Shown here: positions 26,617-54,477 of the stretch, one piece after another
Numbering within the stretch: the stretch's first letter is position 1
How the letters are laid out: every line of letters begins with the position of its first letter
Program-made: the position numbers and the translations under genes
The notes under the pieces: generated by a model
Told to the model about the DNA's origin: nothing
The model's input: the letters and a program-made list of their open reading frames with translations, nothing else
The model's database searches: none
Assembly (NCBI GenBank): GCA_963725235.1
Contig: CAVRXN010000002.1
Span: 378,902-442,901 of the forward strand
Reading direction: 5' to 3'
Length of the DNA: 64,000 bases
DNA from: an uncultured bacterium
GTDB taxonomy: Bacteria > Patescibacteriota > Minisyncoccia > UBA6257 > 2-01-FULL-56-20

Positions 26617-26644
26617 TTGACAAGGTTTCTCAGTTTGCTACAAT
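26617..26644 (+). promoter_or_regulatory. rRNA promoter TTGACA-N16-TACAAT
   Basis: Consensus -35 at 26617-26622 and -10 at 26639-26644, ~170 nt upstream of the 16S 5' end. Confidence 0.65.
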
Positions 26645-26704: not shown

Positions 26705-26723
26705 AAATGAATTAAATTAGTAG

Positions 26724-26745
26724 AGAGTTTTTTAGTTGTCCCAAA
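26724..26745 (+). other. 5' strand of the 16S leader-trailer processing helix
   Basis: AGAGTTTTTTAGTTGTCCCAAA is complementary to 29285-29306, giving 22 bp with one G-U pair. Confidence 0.7.
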
Positions 26746-27844
26746 ATGTTTCTTTAGTTTGTTAGTGTTAGTCATTCGAACCCCTCGATCGAGGGTTTGA
26801 ATGCAAATTCAAATTCTTTTCAGAGGATTTGATCCTGGTCCAGGATGAACGCTGGCGGTGTGGATAAGGCATGCAAGTCGAGCGCCCCGCAAGGGGAGCG
26901 GCGAACGAGTTAGTAACACCCTGGTACGTACCTCGAAGTCGGGCATAGCTCGCCGAAAGGCGGGGTAATTCCCGATAGTCCCGCAAGGGTAAAGGTCGCA
27001 AGCCGCTTTGAGATCGGCCTAGGTCCGATCAGCTAGTTGGTAAGGTAACGGCTTACCAAGGCTATGACCGGTAGGGGAGGTGAGAGCCTGACCCCCACCG
27101 ACGAGACTGAGACACGGCTCGTACTCCTACGGGTGGCAGCAGTCGAGAATATTCGACAATGGGCGAAAGCCTGATCGAGCGACACCGCGTGCAGGATGAA
27201 GGCCTTCGGGTCGTAAACTGCGGTAGTATGAGTAACAATGCAAATGACGTGCCATATGGAAAGAGGTGGGTAACTACGTGCCAGCACCAGCGGTAATACG
27301 TAGACCTCAAGCGTTATCCGGATTTATTGGGCGTAAAGAGCATGTAGGAGGTTTTGCGCGTCTTTTGTTAAAGCCCACGGCCTAACCGTGGAACTGCAAG
27401 AGAAACGGCAGAACTAGAGGGGGTTAGAGGTGCATGGAACTCACGGTGTAGGGGTGAAATCCGTTGATATCGTGGGGAACACCAAAGGCGAAGGCAGTGC
27501 ACTGGGACCTTCCTGACTCTGAGATGCGAAAGCGTGGGGAGCAAAAAGGATTAGATACCCTTGTAGTCCACGCCCTAAACGATGTCTGTTTGCTGTTTCG
27601 AGTATCGACCCTCGGAGTGGCGTAGCTAACGCGTTAAACAGACCGCCTGGGAAGTACGGTCGCAAGGTTAAAACTCAAAGGAATAGACGGGGACTCGCAC
27701 AAGCGGTGGAACATGTGGTTTAATTCGATAGTAAGCGAGGAACCTTACCAGGGCTTGAAATGTACGTTGACGGGTCGATGGAAACGTTGCCCTTCTCACA
27801 AGGACAGTGTACGCAGGTGCTGCATGGTTGTCGTCAGCTCGTGC

Positions 27845-28739
27845 TTTGAACAACTTCGGAGCCTTCAGGAGTAATCTTGAAGTAAAATCTGGCTCATAAC
27901 GGGGGAACCGAGATATAATAAGTATTATGATTGGCAATCCCGTGGGAAGTTTGGAAGTTCCAACAATGCTTCGTGCAAGGAAAAACTTGAAGCTCGCGAT
28001 CAGCGAGCGGCAAAGGAATATTTTGATTGGTTGTGTATTGGGAGATGCATATATTTCTCCGAAAGGAAAAATCCGCATCGAACAATCTACAAAGCAATCT
28101 AAATATCTTTGGTGGAAATACGAAGAATTACATTCTTTAGCATATCCATCATTGCCGAGAGAAATTAAACACATTCACAAACCTACAGATCGAATTTATT
28201 CGTCGGAATTTTTTGATTTACGACAATATTTTCGACCATGGCGATCAATATTTTATCAAGGGAAAAAGATTTTTCCTGAAATGTTATTGATTGATTCGCT
28301 TTCATTAGCGGTATGGTATATGGATGATGGTTGCTGGACCGGTAAAAAATCGGTTATAGCAATAGAAGGATTTGATGATGAAAGCATCGAGAGAATCCAA
28401 CAAATGTTTCTAAATCATCTTGAAATAGAGACAATCGTTGGAAAGAATCGAAAACTTATCATCAGAAAAACCTCCCATGAATTATTTTATGGATTAATTT
28501 CTCCTTACATTATTCCTAGCATGCAGTATAAACTTCCAAACCCCGTAACGACTTATCCGAAAGGATGGAATGAGATTTTTGAATCTCATTAAAACGCCAG
28601 CTCCAGTGTAATGAAAATTACAGCTGGATGAAGGTATAGTCTGTGTTCTGTGAAACTTCGTTTCACGGATTGGTTCGCTCATCGAAAATGAAAATAAATT
28701 TTCATTTTCGCTTCGCTGCCAATCCTAAGAAATTTAGAA
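27845..28739 (+). mobile_element. Intervening sequence (intron-like) in 16S near E. coli position ~1075, encoding a homing endonuclease
   Basis: 16S collinearity breaks after CAGCTCGTGC and resumes at GGAAGTGTTCCCTTAAGTGGGGTAACGAGCGCAACCC. The insert is AT-rich. Boundaries are approximate (plus or minus 5 nt). Confidence 0.8.
27927..28592 (+). CDS. LAGLIDADG homing endonuclease (two-motif, monomeric type)
   Basis: ILIGCVLGDAYI and LAVWYMDDGCW motifs, located inside the 16S insertion. Confidence 0.85.
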   Translation: MIGNPVGSLEVPTMLRARKNLKLAISERQRNILIGCVLGDAYISPKGKIRIEQSTKQSKYLWWKYEELHSLAYPSLPREIKHIHKPTDRIYSSEFFDLRQYFRPWRSIFYQGKKIFPEMLLIDSLSLAVWYMDDGCWTGKKSVIAIEGFDDESIERIQQMFLNHLEIETIVGKNRKLIIRKTSHELFYGLISPYIIPSMQYKLPNPVTTYPKGWNEIFESH

Positions 28740-29284
28740 CGGAAGTGTTCCCTTAAGTGGGGTAACGAGCGCAACCCCTATTACGCGTTACAAGTGTCGC
28801 GTGAAACTGCCCCCGCTTTTGTCCGAGAGTGAATTCGACGATTGAATTCATAAACTCGCGGCCAGAAGCGGGGGAGGAAGGAGGGGATGACGTCAAATCA
28901 GCATGGCCCTTTGATGCCCTGGGCTACACACGTGTTACAATGGCGGTGACAATGGGTTGCCAACCCGCAAGGGGGAGCTAATCCCATCAAACATCGCCCC
29001 AGTTCGGATTGGGGGCTGCAACCTGCCCCCATGAAGCCGGAATCGCTAGTAATCGCAGATCAGCCACGCTGCGGTGAATACGTTCTCGAGTCCTGTACTC
29101 ACTGCCCGTCAACTCAAGGGAGCCGGTAATGGGCAAAATCTCTTTTCGGGATTAGTTCAAGATCGGTGACATGGAGTAAGTCGTAACAAGGCACCGGTAG
29201 CGGAAGCTGTCGCGTGGATCAATTAAACTACTACATCTAAGCAATGTAGTGGTGTCGCCAGCCAGACCAGTAGGGTCCGCTGAG

Positions 29285-29306
29285 TTTGGGGCAACTAAAA
29301 AACTCT
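29285..29306 (+). other. 3' strand of the 16S leader-trailer processing helix
   Basis: TTTGGGGCAACTAAAAAACTCT pairs with 26724-26745. Confidence 0.7.
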
Positions 29307-29324
29307 TTAGGTTTAGTGTGGGTA

Positions 29325-29342
29325 TGGTATAATGAAAACATG
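29325..29342 (+). promoter_or_regulatory. Extended -10 box abutting the start codon (TGgTATAAT-N6-ATG)
   Basis: TG at 29325-29326, TATAAT at 29328-29333, ATG at 29340. Confidence 0.5.
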
Positions 29343-29717
29343 CCTGACGGAATGAAAACTATTATGATCATAGAGGATGACCGGTTTTTATCATCGCTTA
29401 TGAAAGCACGCTTCGAAAAAGATGGATTTTCCATAATCCAGGCATTCGATGGCGAAGAAGCAATCCAGGTTTTTAAACAGCAAACGCCAAGTCTGATCAT
29501 TCTCGACCTCATCATGCCGAAAGTGACCGGCTTCGAGGTTTTGCAAACGATCTCGATCACGCCGCAATTGGAAAAAGTGCCGGTCGTCATTTTGTCGAAC
29601 CTCGCGCAGGATTCGGATATCGAAAAAGCGCGAGAGCTCGGTGCGAAGGAATATTTTGTAAAAGTTAAGGTTTCAATCGACGACCTCGTTGGCCGCGTCA
29701 AAACCCTGGTCGCGTAG
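29340..29717 (+). CDS. Receiver-only response regulator (CheY-like)
   Basis: IMIIEDD, acceptor Asp in LIILDLIMP, ILSN and a conserved Lys (FVKVK). The upstream part of ORF 29286.. covers the promoter. Confidence 0.85.
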   Translation: MPDGMKTIMIIEDDRFLSSLMKARFEKDGFSIIQAFDGEEAIQVFKQQTPSLIILDLIMPKVTGFEVLQTISITPQLEKVPVVILSNLAQDSDIEKARELGAKEYFVKVKVSIDDLVGRVKTLVA

Positions 29718-30166: not shown

Positions 30167-31174
30167 ATGTTTGGCAAAAAAATCGGCATCGACTTGGGAA
30201 CGGCGAACACCGTTGTTTTTGTACCCGGCCGCGGATTTATCATCAATGAACCGACGATCGTCGCGCTGACACGTCCGGACAATGTCGTTCTCGCCGTCGG
30301 CCTCGAGGCAAAAGAAATGATCGGTCGGACGCCGGATGAAATCGTCGCATATCGGCCGTTGAAAGATGGCGTCATCGCCGACTACTATATTACGAAGGCG
30401 ATGCTGACGTACTTCATCTCGAAGGCGATCGGTTGGTTTAACATGATGAAACCCGATGTCGTCATCTCGGTTCCGGCGGGCATAACACAGACCGAGCGCC
30501 GCGCAGTCATGAACGCCGCGCGCGAAGCAGGCGCCGGCCAGGCATTCATTGTCCGCGAGCCGATCCTCGCCGCGCTCGGCGCCGGCATCCCGATCAACGC
30601 GCGCTCGGGCAACATGATCGTGAACATCGGCGGTGGCACATCCGAGCAAGCGGTCATCGCGCTCGGCAATATCGTTTCATGGAACTCGTTGCGAATCGCC
30701 GGCAACAAGTTCGACCACGCGATTATGGATTACGTTAAAAAGAAATACGCACTCGCGATCGGCGAGCAGACGGCGGAGACGGTCAAGATCGCGATCGGTT
30801 CTGCGCTGCCGACGAAGGAGAAAATGGAATATCAAATTCGTGGGCGTGACCTTGTAACCGGCCTCCCAAAGGATATTACGATAACATCAAACGAGATTGC
30901 CGAAGCACTTAATCCGCTTTTAATAGAAATCGCGCACTCGATCCAAAACGTTTTTAACGTCACCCCACCCGAACTCGTCGCCGATATTATGGAAAAGGGC
31001 ATCATCCTGTCCGGCGGCAGCGTCCAGCTGCATCATTTGCCAGAATTCCTCGAACGCTTTTTAGGCGTCCAGGCCTACGTCGCCGAGGATCCGTTATTCT
31101 GCGTTGCAAAGGGGACTGGTTTGATTCTGAATCATTTGGATACATATAAGAGGACGTTGCTGAATAAGAGGTAA
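30167..31174 (+). CDS. mreB: Rod shape-determining protein MreB (copy 1)
   Basis: IGIDLGTANTVVF, NEPTIVAL, actin-fold phosphate and adenosine motifs, 335 aa. Confidence 0.9.
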   Translation: MFGKKIGIDLGTANTVVFVPGRGFIINEPTIVALTRPDNVVLAVGLEAKEMIGRTPDEIVAYRPLKDGVIADYYITKAMLTYFISKAIGWFNMMKPDVVISVPAGITQTERRAVMNAAREAGAGQAFIVREPILAALGAGIPINARSGNMIVNIGGGTSEQAVIALGNIVSWNSLRIAGNKFDHAIMDYVKKKYALAIGEQTAETVKIAIGSALPTKEKMEYQIRGRDLVTGLPKDITITSNEIAEALNPLLIEIAHSIQNVFNVTPPELVADIMEKGIILSGGSVQLHHLPEFLERFLGVQAYVAEDPLFCVAKGTGLILNHLDTYKRTLLNKR

Positions 31175-34544: not shown

Positions 34545-35588
34545 ATGGCACTCTTCGATAATATTTTTAAAGACATCGGCATCGACCTCGGCACGGCGAA
34601 TTCGCTTATTTACCTGAAACATAAAGGCGTCGTCGTGAATGAGCCGTCGGTTGCGGCGATGAACGCAAAAACGAACGCGATTTTGGCCGTCGGCGATGAA
34701 GCAAAAAAAATGCTCGGTCGCGTGCCACCGCATATTACGGTCGTCAGGCCGCTCGTCAACGGCGTGATTTCCGACTTCGAAATGACTGAGGAGATGCTCA
34801 GGCATTTGCTGAGCCGTCCGAAAGCGAACGGCATGACGTCGTATCGACGCGCGCTGCTCGCGATCCCGAATAATTTGACCGAAGTCGAGCGAAAATCGGT
34901 AGAAGATGCCGCGCTGAACGCTGGATGCGCGAAAGTATATCTCGTCGAGTCGCCGACAGCGGCCGCACTCGGCGCCGGTTTGCCAATAACACTCCCGGCA
35001 GCCAGCTTGATCGTCGACATCGGTGGCGGAACGACCGACATCGCAGTCATTTCGATGGGCGGCACCGTCGTTTCGCGGACGCTGAAAACCGCTGGCGATA
35101 AATTTAATGAAGATATAATAAGATTTGCACACGACGAATTCCATCTCGCGATCGGCGAGCCGTCAGCCGAATACGCGAAAATCGCGGTCGGTTCAGCGAT
35201 CCCACTCGACGAGCGATTGGAAATTGCTATCCGCGGGCGCGACATGACAACCGGCTTACCCCGCGAAGTTATGATGAAAAATAATCACGTGCGTATGGCC
35301 ATCGCGAAATCGCTGCGGACGATCGTCGACGCAGTGCGCGAAGTGATTGAGGAAACGCCGCCGGAGCTCGCGGGCGACGTCTTGCATCAAGGGATAACGC
35401 TGTGCGGCGGCGGTGCGTTGTTGCGCGGACTCGACGAGCTGCTCGAAAAAGAAACCGGCGTCGCGGTGCACATCGCCGACGATCCGCTGACCTGCGTCGT
35501 CCGCGGCCTCGGCCAGATGGTCGACGACTTCGACGCACATCGCGAACTGCTCGACAATCCGCTGAAACCGATCGCGATCAGTTTGTAG
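34545..35588 (+). CDS. mreB: Rod shape-determining protein MreB (copy 2)
   Basis: IGIDLGTANSLIY, NEPSVAAM, 347 aa. It heads the mreC/mreD-like/PBP2 cluster. Confidence 0.9.
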   Translation: MALFDNIFKDIGIDLGTANSLIYLKHKGVVVNEPSVAAMNAKTNAILAVGDEAKKMLGRVPPHITVVRPLVNGVISDFEMTEEMLRHLLSRPKANGMTSYRRALLAIPNNLTEVERKSVEDAALNAGCAKVYLVESPTAAALGAGLPITLPAASLIVDIGGGTTDIAVISMGGTVVSRTLKTAGDKFNEDIIRFAHDEFHLAIGEPSAEYAKIAVGSAIPLDERLEIAIRGRDMTTGLPREVMMKNNHVRMAIAKSLRTIVDAVREVIEETPPELAGDVLHQGITLCGGGALLRGLDELLEKETGVAVHIADDPLTCVVRGLGQMVDDFDAHRELLDNPLKPIAISL

Positions 35589-35589
35589 T

Positions 35590-36267
35590 ATGCTTAATCG
35601 GAAGCGACATGTATGGATTTTAATATTGTGCGTTCTCGCGCTCGCAATTTTAATATTCTTTGAACCAAGCTACGGCTGGCGACTCCGTGCCGCATTAACG
35701 CAGCACGACATTATCTCCGCCGATGATCCGACCTTGCCGGCGCAAAATCAAGCCCTGCAGGCGCAAATCGCGCAACTGCAAACGATAGCTGCCGAGGCGC
35801 CGCAGGCGACAACGGCAAACACGATTACCGCGATGGTGTATTCGCAATATCCATTCGGTTTCAAAAATGAATTATTGATTAACGCCGGCACGAATGAAGG
35901 AGTCGCGACCGGAAGTGCGGTAATGTATCAAGGCGTTTTTGTCGGTACCGTCACGCAGGTCTTCACCAACTCAGCGGCCGTCCAAACCGTTTTCGATCCA
36001 AACTTCAAGATGGCGGTCCGCGTCGGCAACGGTGGCATCGACGCATTGTTACAAGGCGGTGCCTATCCGAGCGCCGGCTCGATCGCCAAGGGTTCAGCCA
36101 TCGCCGCCGCCGACATCGTCTACACCGCCGCACCCGGCATCCCATACGGCCTCCCGGTCGCCGTCATCGCCGCAACGAGCACCTCCGCCGACAATCTCTT
36201 CGAAAACGCTTCATTAAATTTTGCCTACAACATCAACAACATTCAGGCCGTCGTGATACAAAAATAA
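35590..36267 (+). CDS. mreC: Rod shape-determining protein MreC
   Basis: N-terminal TM helix, a coiled-coil (QNQALQAQIAQLQ), then a beta-rich domain (GVFVGTVTQVF...). It sits directly after mreB. Confidence 0.7.
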   Translation: MLNRKRHVWILILCVLALAILIFFEPSYGWRLRAALTQHDIISADDPTLPAQNQALQAQIAQLQTIAAEAPQATTANTITAMVYSQYPFGFKNELLINAGTNEGVATGSAVMYQGVFVGTVTQVFTNSAAVQTVFDPNFKMAVRVGNGGIDALLQGGAYPSAGSIAKGSAIAAADIVYTAAPGIPYGLPVAVIAATSTSADNLFENASLNFAYNINNIQAVVIQK

Positions 36268-36715: not shown

Positions 36716-38685
36716 ATGGCAACGCATCGCAGCGGGAAAGGCGGCAAAAAAGATAACGACCTCGCATTCGAAGACGCATTGAGCGACGACTGGAACCGTG
36801 ATATCAAAGTCGCGGAGGTGCCAGTCGGCAACCGGCCATTGCTCGCGCTCGGCATCGGCGTCTTGGCAATCGCGCTCGCGATCGCCGGGCAGATTGTTAT
36901 TCTAAACATGACGAAAGGTTCATACTACGAAGCGCGCGCGGCGGACAACGTCGCGGATGAAAATGCGACGCCGGCACCGCGCGGAGAAATTTTAGACAAA
37001 GAAGGCACGGTGCTTGCCGACAGCCAAGCGGCATTCGCCGCGCTCCTGAATGCGACCGCATATATCGATGGCGATTCGATTTTACAATCGTCGACGGTCA
37101 GCGCCGCGCAATCGATTCTCGGCATCTCGACAACAACCTTCGGCGGTATTCTCGCGCAAGCGAACGCATCCAACTTTGCCGCACCGATCGTCTTGCAGGA
37201 AAATTTAACACAAACCGAACTCGTCAATTTGCAGGCGCTCAACTTGCCGACGATTATCATCCAAAATGATTTCGAGCGCTCATACCCGAACGGCCCGATC
37301 TTTTCATCCGTCGTCGGCTACGTCGGCCGCCCAACCGCAGCCGATCTCCAATCCGATTCGACACTAACAAGCGCCGGCTTCGTCGGCAAAGCTGGCATAG
37401 AAGAATACTACGACAACGAATTGCAGGGGACGCCGGGCGTTGATGTCCAGTATAAGAATGCGCAAGGGCAAGTGCTCGGCACGGGAACACAATCGCAGCC
37501 GAAGATCGGGCAAACGATAAAGCTGACAATCGATGGCGGGTTGCAAACGGAATTATATAACGCGCTGTCGAACGGCCTCAACTCGCTCGACCGCAGCGTC
37601 GGCCTCGGTCTCGCCATCGATCCGCAAAATGGCCAAATGCTCGCGCTCGTCAATTTGCCCGGCTACGACAATAATGTCTTCTCGCAATCGAATTCTAGTA
37701 CAGCAGCAATTATTAAAAATTTATTAACTTCGCCCGATGAACCATTGTTCAACCGGACCGTCAGCGGTTATTACAATCCCGGCTCGACGATCAAGCCACT
37801 CGATGCGGTCGCCGGACTAAAAGATGACATCATCGACCCGACGCAGGAAATCAATTCACCCGGCTACTTGATGGTTCCCGATCCGTATAACTCGTCGACG
37901 CCGACAAAGTATCTCGACTGGGAATCGCACGGCAACATCGACCTCGCCAATGCACTCGCACAATCATCAGACGTCTATTTCTATCTCGTCGGTGGGGGTT
38001 CGCCGCAATCGACGCCGATGCTCAACAGTCCGCTCGATTACGGTATCAGCGGCCTCGGCATCACGAAGCTCTATCAATGGTGGCAAACATTCGGCCTCGG
38101 CAAACCGACCGGCATCGACATGCCCGGATGAATCGTCCGGATTTTTGCCAACGCCAGCGTGGAAGCAATCAAAGATGGGCACGCCATGGCTGCTCGGCGA
38201 TACCTATAACGTCTCGATCGGCCAGGGCGATTTACTGCTCGGGCCGCTCCAATTGCTAAGCTATATCGACGCGATCGCGAATGGCGGAACGATTTGGCAG
38301 CCGTATCTGAACGCCAGTTCGACGCCAACAGTTAATGAAGATTTAACATCTTTATATCCGCAAATTCAGGACGTGCAGTTCGGCATGCAGGCCGGCGTCG
38401 AGTCGCCGCGCGGAACGTCGTATACGTTAAACGATTTGCCATTCGCGATTTGCGCGAAAACCGGTTCGGCACAGGTGCACGACAACTCGCAGGAAAACGC
38501 ACTGTTCGTCGGCTATGCGCCCTGTAACCCGGCGCTGTCGAACGACGACATGCCGCAGATCGCACTGCTTGATTCTGATCGAAAACTCGAAGCAAGGGAG
38601 TTTGAACGCCGTTCCGATAGCGAAGCAAGTATTAAATTGGTATTATGAGAATAGGATGACTAACACAAGTACAACATCGTCATGA
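36716..38685 (+). pseudogene. mrdA: Penicillin-binding protein 2 (elongasome transpeptidase) interrupted by two +1 frameshifts
   Basis: Frame A (36716-38131) carries STIK and SSD. Frame B (from 38130) continues ESSGFLPTPAWK...SIGQGDLL...KTGSAQ. Frame C (from 38572) gives ILIENSKQGSLNAVPIAKQVLNWYY and ends in an ATGA overlap with the next gene. The extra nucleotides are at ~38129 and ~38571. Confidence 0.8.
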
Positions 38686-48739: not shown

Positions 48740-49216
48740 TCATGCGAAAGCAGGATTCATGAATTCTGTGCAATGCGTTATCTTGCCGCAAGCGCAGCAG
48801 CAGGTAACGTTCTCTTCGAGTCGCATCAGGTCGTGCCGTAGGTTTTTCCCGAATGTCGCCTCGAGTCGTCTTAACGCATAGTTGGCGTAGACCCGCTTCG
48901 CTTCCTGGGAATTTGCAAGATCCGCCGGATCGTGATCGACGAATCGTCCTGCGAATTCTTCACAAAATTCACGATAGAACTGCGTATTCAATACAAAGCT
49001 ATGCCAGATGCGATCCACTGATTGAAGCATTTGGATCGGTTGTGTTGCTTCCGGGACGAGCGAAAACCATTGCAGAAACGCATCCAAAAGTTCCTTGGCG
49101 CGCTTCTTTGATTTTACGTCGCATTCACGCATGGCGGTTTCGAGGATGGGAGAATAATCTCGTGCCCTCTTCATCTTCCGATACAATCGATAGGTTCTTT
49201 TGTCAAGATCCGTCAT
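48740..49216 (-). CDS. Hypothetical protein (resembles glycine-rich-domain / COG4278-type proteins)
   Basis: VDRIWHSFVLNTQFYREFCEEFAGRFVDHDP and a C-terminal CCCACG...C cluster. AGGAGG lies 8 nt upstream of the ATG. Confidence 0.5.
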   Translation of the reverse strand: MTDLDKRTYRLYRKMKRARDYSPILETAMRECDVKSKKRAKELLDAFLQWFSLVPEATQPIQMLQSVDRIWHSFVLNTQFYREFCEEFAGRFVDHDPADLANSQEAKRVYANYALRRLEATFGKNLRHDLMRLEENVTCCCACGKITHCTEFMNPAFA

Positions 49217-54198: not shown

Positions 54199-54477
54199 TT
54201 ACGAAGCACCAAGAGTGCCCAATTGAACTTGTAGTGCCTTAATAGTTTCTCTAACAATCTTTACTGCCTCACGAGTACAGGTCAATCCAGGCTTCAGCTC
54301 CTCTAGCTCCTCTAAAACGGCGACCCGCTCTTCTTCTGGGATTACCATTTCTCGCAAAAGATAACAGCATGCGTGGATCTCTCCGGTTGCACAACCAACG
54401 GCGTAATCCGTGAGATAATCTCGACCGCAGACTTTTCGCAAACAATCTAGCGCGGCTCGATATGGTACTGAGGGCAT
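54199..54477 (-). CDS. Small Cys-rich hypothetical protein (92 aa)
   Basis: GGAGG lies 8 nt upstream of the ATG and a terminator lies downstream. Seven Cys. Confidence 0.5.
   Translation of the reverse strand: MPSVPYRAALDCLRKVCGRDYLTDYAVGCATGEIHACCYLLREMVIPEEERVAVLEELEELKPGLTCTREAVKIVRETIKALQVQLGTLGAS

Follow-up and report, generated by a model that had tools for sequence, protein, structure and literature searches.

The window (the whole 64-kb stretch of DNA analysed here) holds one 16S rRNA gene, three tRNA genes and no 23S rRNA gene, as found with the Rfam SSU models. The 16S gene is of the Parcubacteria type and was matched over its full length (model positions 1-1478, 871 bits), with the archaeal model winning the clan competition. 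It follows a promoter with 11 of 12 consensus matches and an extended -10 element. Its leader and trailer are predicted to pair in a processing helix of 23 bp (ΔG of -34.1 kcal/mol, compared to -6.5 ± 2.5 for 500 shuffles, the best of which reached -16.1). A previous reading of this DNA, made from its letters only (hereafter, the sequence-only reading), had described a leader-trailer helix enclosing the 16S end, and its coordinates proved right to within 1 nt. The features of the locus are as follows.

26617-26644 (+), rRNA promoter, read from the sequence: TTGACA (26617-26622), 16-nt spacer, TGn-TACAAT (26639-26644)
26723-26745 (+), 5' leader strand of the pre-16S processing helix, in duplex with 29284-29306
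26822-29230 (+), 16S rRNA gene of Parcubacteria type, with an insertion; 3' limit placed from conservation
27851-28741 (+), 16S insertion of about 0.9 kb with a LAGLIDADG homing-endonuclease ORF (27927-28592), delimited by the exons that abut in locus L005
29194-29221 (+), helix 45 with its GGAA tetraloop, then the conserved GGAUCA (29216-29221), from the RF00177 alignment and 13 relatives
29222-29230 (+), replacement 3' tail AUUAAACUA, in place of CCUCCUUUC and without the anti-Shine-Dalgarno (anti-SD) core, from the RF00177 alignment and relatives
29228-29252 (+), trailer hairpin with arms CUACUACAU and AUGUAGUGG and loop CUAAGCA (ΔG -8.9)
29253-29259 (+), (R)GUCG(A/C) box, conserved, 3' of the tail and shared with CCUCC-keeping relatives
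29284-29306 (+), 3' trailer strand of the processing helix, in duplex with 26723-26745
29328-29342 (+), TATAAT (29328-29333), 6 nt and the ATG (29340) of a response-regulator gene (PF00072), an example of the leaderless type

The motif GGGRCAACUAAAAA in the trailer strand of the processing helix recurs in five related loci (L019, L126, L137, L156 and L224). A helix of RNase III type at the 16S gene fits a 2025 survey, in which RNase III, RNase J and PNPase are the ribonucleases kept by the Candidate Phyla Radiation (CPR). The response-regulator gene begins 110 nt beyond the 16S tail, with neither a 23S gene nor spacer tRNAs between them. Likewise, 23S adjoined 16S in none of 12 related loci (L005, L027, L110, L127, L139, L148, L156, L161, L165, L178, L181 and L189), and the rRNA genes of the window's clade seem as a rule to be unlinked.

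The insertion lies near E. coli position ~1070, and its ORF is a LAGLIDADG_2 protein (PF03161, E = 1.3e-21). It matched neither the group I nor the group II intron model of Rfam. The nearest relative, L005, is without it, and the exons there abut. 16S insertions of this kind are typical of the CPR. A second recurrent insertion site lies directly 5' of the conserved CGCCCGTCA at the entry to helix 44, where L026, L097, L028, L017 and L046 carry a further insertion and the window's 16S has none. The 16S gene of L165 holds a bona fide group I intron.

To align the 3' end, the last 700 bases of the 16S gene were searched again under permissive filters. Positions 1066-1533 of RF00177 aligned to 28700-29229 (321.5 bits, E = 1.9e-100), with helix 44, helix 45, the GGAA tetraloop and GGAUCA all paired normally. 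The sequence runs ...GGTAGCGGAAGCTGTCGCGTGGATCA up to 29221 and continues with ATTAAACTACTACAT at 29222-29236. Bacteria normally have CCUCCUUU after GGAUCA. In the window, the alignment instead sets AUUAAACU opposite the consensus CCUCCUUu with high posterior probability, and the tail of about 13 nt after GGAUCA, AUUAAACUACUAC, contains neither CCUCC nor a close variant of it. Between 26501 and 29700 the only CCTCC is at 28471, within the insertion ORF, and there is none in 28472-29700. A CCUCC further downstream, or past an intervening sequence, was also considered and is ruled out, as none occurs beyond the tail, either inside the processing helix or as far as the next gene. The sequence-only reading had held that helix 45 with its GGAA tetraloop and the GGAUCA after it are intact up to 29221, that the tail beyond them is without CCUCC, and that no anti-SD follows before the next gene. 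The covariance-model alignment agrees on the first two points, and the absence of CCTCC from 29101-29700 bears out the third. Thus, it is confirmed that this 16S is without the CCUCC core of the anti-SD, and at the coordinates first proposed.

The 3' strand of helix 45 has an extra C near 29214 (GUCGcGUGG), which is absent from 13 of 13 aligned relatives; it may be a true bulge or an error in base calling. Past the tail, a (R)GUCG(A/C) box stands 10-60 nt beyond GGAUCA in nearly all trailers of Parcubacteria type (loci L121-L240) and may be a 3'-processing signal. The hairpin between tail and box is optional and of unrelated sequence from one relative to another. About 28 of 38 distinct relative trailers have a hairpin at this site, and a few have none.

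We compared 16S tails among relatives in two scans. The first, with one genome per species, took 16S ends in which GGATCA is followed by a base other than C (GGATCAD). About two thirds of its matches were eukaryotic 18S/ITS contaminants (GGATCATT...), and it gives no usable frequency estimate. These included 76 of loci L001-L120, which are 18S/ITS1 fragments with TTTCCGTAGGTGAACCTGCGGAA as helix 45 and then GGATCATT, in assemblies labelled Streptomyces, Vibrio, Collinsella and others, and represent contamination in public genomes. About 40 matches were from Patescibacteria, namely MAGs labelled Paceibacterota, Staskawicz-, Nealson-, Lipton- and Saccharibacteria, and Minisyncoccus archaeiphilus. 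The last of these is cultivated, and its 16S (L042) has the tail GGAUCAUUUAUUU.

The second scan covered metagenome contigs. It was anchored on the 5' strand of helix 45 of Parcubacteria type, left the tail unconstrained and gave at least 120 loci. Among the 120 matches listed, a CCTCC tail (CCTCCTTT) occurred in 9, CCTCTTTT in two, TCTCC in one and CTTCC in one. All remaining tails of the matches listed were A/U-rich: ATTAAACT(A/T/C) in ~31, TTTTTTTAA in ~31, ATTCCAAxT in ~11, and smaller families. The window's tail, AUUAAACUA, was found in at least 41 loci, some of them in complete or near-complete genomes. Anti-SD loss is therefore typical of the window's lineage. A comparison with the 16S genes of close relatives had been proposed as a check, and it placed AUUAAACUA after GGAUCA in ~40 independent genome and metagenome contigs. 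The argument that this end is not an assembly truncation, made at first from the enclosing processing helix, is strengthened by these contigs, and the shared tail together with the conserved trailer elements argues against an assembly artefact of any kind.

The nearest relative (L005, an 829-kb MAG chromosome) has 93.7% 16S identity to the window over conserved columns, and a genome labelled Ca. Liptonbacteria, in the Parcubacteria group, has ~88%. In a rough neighbour-joining (NJ) tree of 36 near-complete 16S genes, built without support values, the window's 16S was nested within contigs labelled Patescibacteria or Paceibacterota, a position that, with the ~88% identity and the CPR-style 16S insertion, points to membership of the Parcubacteria. 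Lineages with CCUCC were basal, and those with UCUCC (L158 and L046) adjoined the clade of UCUAAAGAU, UUCUUAAAG and the AUUAAACUA group. The variant anti-SD GGAUCAUCUCCUUUCU, with U for the first C, was seen in eight loci (L012, L046, L074, L091, L094, L100, L103 and L158), which are several Patescibacteria (Azambacteria, Gracilibacteria, Parcubacteria) and a few other MAGs. In the tree these lineages lie between those with CCUCC and those without an anti-SD. The order of branching suggests an apparent stepwise decay, from CCUCC to UCUCC to AUUAA. The new tail is itself invariant or nearly so across its clade, and is kept at 82.8% 16S identity to the window (L027), while the sequence directly 3' of it varies freely among relatives. 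From this pattern, purifying selection appears to act on the replacement tail.

Do the genes of such genomes use SD motifs? Genes were called naively, as non-overlapping ORFs of at least 100 codons from the first ATG, with all ATG triplets as background and 50 kb of E. coli, run through the identical script, as the control. An SD-like 4-mer at -20 to -4 was found in 8% of window genes, compared to 10% for the background and 55% for E. coli. The mean best ΔG to the canonical anti-SD at -22 to -1 was -2.95 kcal/mol for the window and -6.25 kcal/mol for E. coli. A positional hybridisation profile showed no energy trough upstream of window starts, where binding was in fact weakest. The proposal that initiation here relies mainly on something other than SD/anti-SD pairing is thus upheld, with SD-like 4-mers at background and no energy dip.

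The same 4-mers occurred in 11-13% of 647 genes from anti-SD-less relatives, and in 22% of genes from CCUCC-bearing Parcubacteria. This last sample is small (n = 45 genes), and hints that SDs may have been little used even before the anti-SD disappeared. A small excess of SD-like sites persists in the anti-SD-less lineages. An SD-like 5-mer at a spacing of 4-10 was found before 6.8-8.1% of their genes, compared to ~3.4% at control spacings, and the excess was significant (p = 0.007 and 1e-5). The window has two good SDs, AGGAGGG before 48740-49216 (-) and GGAGG before 54199-54477 (-), both 7-8 nt 5' of the ATG. Such sites may be fossils, recent acquisitions or the result of a purine preference.

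Start regions in the window are marked by a different signal. TANNNT occurred 4-11 nt 5' of the ATG in 39% of window genes, compared to 11% for the background and 14% for E. coli. By count, 22 of 55 window genes had a -10 hexamer at this distance, and the commonest spacing was 6 nt. In the 647 pooled genes of anti-SD-less relatives the spacing peaked at 6-7 nt, and in the AUUAAA clade the counts were 34 at 6 nt and 20 at 7 nt, compared to ~5 elsewhere. This is the geometry expected if transcription begins at the A of the ATG, and a -10 box that abuts the ATG implies mRNAs that are probably leaderless. The leaderless-type promoters that the sequence-only reading had reported are therefore present in good number, with start sites that we infer from sequence. 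A further 16 of the 55 genes overlap, or lie within 25 nt of, the co-oriented gene 5' of them, as translational coupling would allow. The other 17 are neither leaderless-like nor closely spaced, and most of them have A-rich, G-poor upstream regions.

Among start contexts, UUAAAAAAUC-AUG is recurrent. The 13-mer TTAAAAAATCATG is present in five exact copies and in nine with at most one mismatch, where 0.31 would be expected in the window, and is almost absent from related loci. Four exact copies are at the starts of real ORFs that open with ATG AAA. This 13-mer may represent an A-rich start context peculiar to the genome, or else a leaderless promoter of TATTAA type. Its positions are as follows.

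9734, 21934 (-), 26099, 41145 and 61072, exact copies of TTAAAAAATCATG
15496 (-), 25716, 54012 and 54933 (-), copies of TTAAAAAATCATG with one mismatch

We consider it highly probable that the window carries a genuine, functional Parcubacteria 16S gene whose anti-SD core has been replaced, and that initiation is SD-free by three routes. The core would have given way, clade-wide, to a conserved A/U-rich tail (GGAUCA-AUUAAACUA), and the ribosomes of this organism would be unable to form an SD helix. About 40% of the genes would be on leaderless mRNAs, transcribed from or beside the A of the AUG, with a 5'-terminal AUG bound in the 70S manner. About 30%, where genes overlap or are tightly spaced, would depend on coupling or re-initiation. 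The remaining genes would begin in start regions that are A-rich, G-poor and unstructured. The anti-SD itself may have been lost through relaxed constraint, since SD use seems low in CCUCC-keeping relatives and Era, the protein that reads GAUCACCUCC, has according to a review been lost from most CPR. Simple loss does not explain the conservation of AUUAAACUA, and the residual excess of SD-like sites, including the two SDs of the window, is not accounted for by SD-free initiation.

What, then, is the tail conserved for? Nine nucleotides kept over ~17% 16S divergence are presumably selected for something, and AUUAAACUA might have been re-targeted as an anti-SD, to bind a new, complementary motif (UAGUUUAAU-like) that precedes start codons in the mRNAs. 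We regard this as very improbable. The real tail gave no hybridisation dip at -20 to -5 when set against 54 window starts. In 251 genes of the AUUAAA clade, tail-complementary 5-mers stood at 0.25 for -25 to -1 and 0.22 for -60 to -36, and 6-mers at 0.076 and 0.048, respectively. Sense k-mers rose more than the tail-complementary ones, which indicates an effect of composition, and the 5-mers that were enriched de novo were A-rich or SD-like rather than tail-complementary. Furthermore, an all-A/U duplex would be very weak, and Amin et al. 2018 (PMC6107228) found a pair of variant anti-SD and variant SD in no organism. The tail could alternatively be conserved to pair with the 5' leader in the pre-rRNA, as an element of processing or assembly and not a feature of the mature ribosome. 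A cofold of leader and trailer does pair GGAUCAAUUAAA with leader bases, and GGGUUUGAR recurs ~20 nt 5' of the 16S start in the window, L127, L129, L214 and L230. However, the GGGUUUGA site already lies within a strong local hairpin, and a tail's own leader gave no better mean energy than the leaders of other tail types (-4.19 compared to -4.14 kcal/mol, Wilcoxon p = 0.71, 34 loci), and we think this explanation improbable. Covariation of such a pairing across tail families is likewise unsupported, as own and foreign leaders give equal energy.

It is also conceivable that the 16S end is an artefact of assembly or annotation, or that this is a degenerate extra rrs whose canonical copy, with a GGAUCACCUCCUUA end, lies elsewhere. 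The view of the genome is limited to 64 kb, and the one-base bulge in helix 45, absent in relatives, could be a sequencing error. No exact protein match to the response regulator, bL19 or MreB is on record in other assemblies. Against this, the AUUAAACUA tail is found in ~40 independent contigs, some of them complete or near-complete genomes; a near-consensus promoter precedes the gene, a 23-bp helix encloses it and the covariance model matches it over its full length; and the genes around it are without SDs, as expected where no ribosome has an anti-SD. An artefact or a second, canonical copy is thus highly unlikely. Finally, in addition to having replaced the anti-SD, the tail might have taken on a new function in the mature 30S subunit rather than being a decayed remnant. 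We put this forward tentatively, as a possible but doubtful extension of the preferred reading. It is suggested by AUUAAACUA having been held over ~17% 16S divergence while the adjoining 3' sequence varies. The tail could be a sequence-specific site for docking or maturation in ribosomes that have neither an SD helix nor Era, and versions of it (U7A2-5, AUUCCAAUU) would then have arisen separately in other Parcubacteria clades. If this were true, the 16S 3' end of the clade would have been re-purposed, and the clade, which includes Minisyncoccus archaeiphilus, would be a natural case of bacterial translation wholly independent of SD pairing.

The core fact, anti-SD loss in Parcubacteria, is already published. 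Tsurumaki, Saito, Tomita & Kanai (2022, RNA 28:1041; PMC9297842) detected CCTCCT in only 48% of Parcubacteria, found that the lineages without the motif overlap the group without uL1, and held that SD helices are probably not formed there. Those organisms belong to the same superphylum-level group as the window's, and share with it the lack of CCTCCT at the 16S 3' end and 16S insertions of CPR type. bL19 and bL21 are encoded in the window, and the rplK-rplA region lies outside the 64 kb. Their account gives absence of the motif only, with no replacement tail, GUCGA box, UCUCC intermediates or leaderless signature. We found no description of promoters abutting the ATG in Patescibacteria, Parcubacteria or the CPR in the literature searched, coverage of which was incomplete. 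The conserved replacement tail, the stepwise decay via UCUCC and the leaderless promoter signature seem to be undescribed in that literature, and the GUCGA box, the coupling signature and the small residual SD-like excess may be new, if modest.

By its tail without CCUCC and its ORFs without SD enrichment, the window's 16S belongs to the anti-SD-less class of Lim et al. 2012 and Amin et al. 2018. The latter (PMC6107228) list 128 organisms without CCUCCU, including Flavobacteriia, Mycoplasma and Carsonella, which are also without SD motifs and have no compensating pair of variants. The cases of Lim et al. and Amin et al. are some Flavobacteriia (Chryseobacterium, Elizabethkingia, Riemerella and Blattabacterium), Mycoplasma and Ca. 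Carsonella. Like the window, they keep helix 45 and have a normal tail length, with no anti-SD, no SD enrichment and no new pair. In contrast to the window, they are of other phyla and have another tail sequence, while the loss seen here marks a very large environmental clade with a strong signature of -10 boxes next to the ATG. The leaderless-rich Actinobacteria and Deinococcus-Thermus (Zheng et al. 2011, PMC3160421) resemble the window in having a -10 box at a fixed short distance. Their use of SDs, as in SD-sparing Bacteroidota, is weak or absent. However, Actinobacteria, Deinococcus-Thermus and Bacteroidota all keep the canonical CCUCC in 16S, and the window does not. Initiation of the Bacteroidota type, in which the anti-SD is present and sequestered, therefore does not apply, as the window has not retained CCUCC. 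A last parallel is organellar.

Mammalian mitochondrial 12S rRNA keeps helix 45, and mitochondrial mRNAs are largely leaderless. This rRNA is also without an anti-SD (PMC10582724). In contrast to the window, mitochondria are organelles with dedicated factors and have no evolutionary continuity with it, and the window has sigma-70-like promoters and many operon-internal genes. As the core fact is published, the added value of the present locus is anatomical detail rather than a new phenomenon.

Anti-SD loss is rare in bacteria, and here it marks a huge and mostly uncultured radiation. Gene finders and start-codon callers that use a model of the ribosome binding site will misplace starts in such genomes, and the 16S 3' ends may be mistaken for truncated ones. 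The locus is a clean case of rRNA and mRNA co-variation, in which an absent anti-SD goes together with absent SDs, promoters that run up to the ATG and tightly coupled genes, and the conserved replacement tail hints at a candidate function.

The window also encodes a rod-shape set of two MreB paralogues, MreC and PBP2 (30167-31174, 34545-35588, 35590-36267 and 36716-38648), presumably in an ultra-small CPR cell. The PBP2-type transpeptidase is in two ORFs in different frames, 36716-38131 and 37950-38648 (+), which overlap by ~180 nt; a frameshift, a sequencing error or decay to a pseudogene could account for the split. Genes for bL19, GreA, a class II aminoacyl-tRNA synthetase and the delta' subunit of DNA polymerase III lie within the same co-directional cluster as the rod-shape genes.
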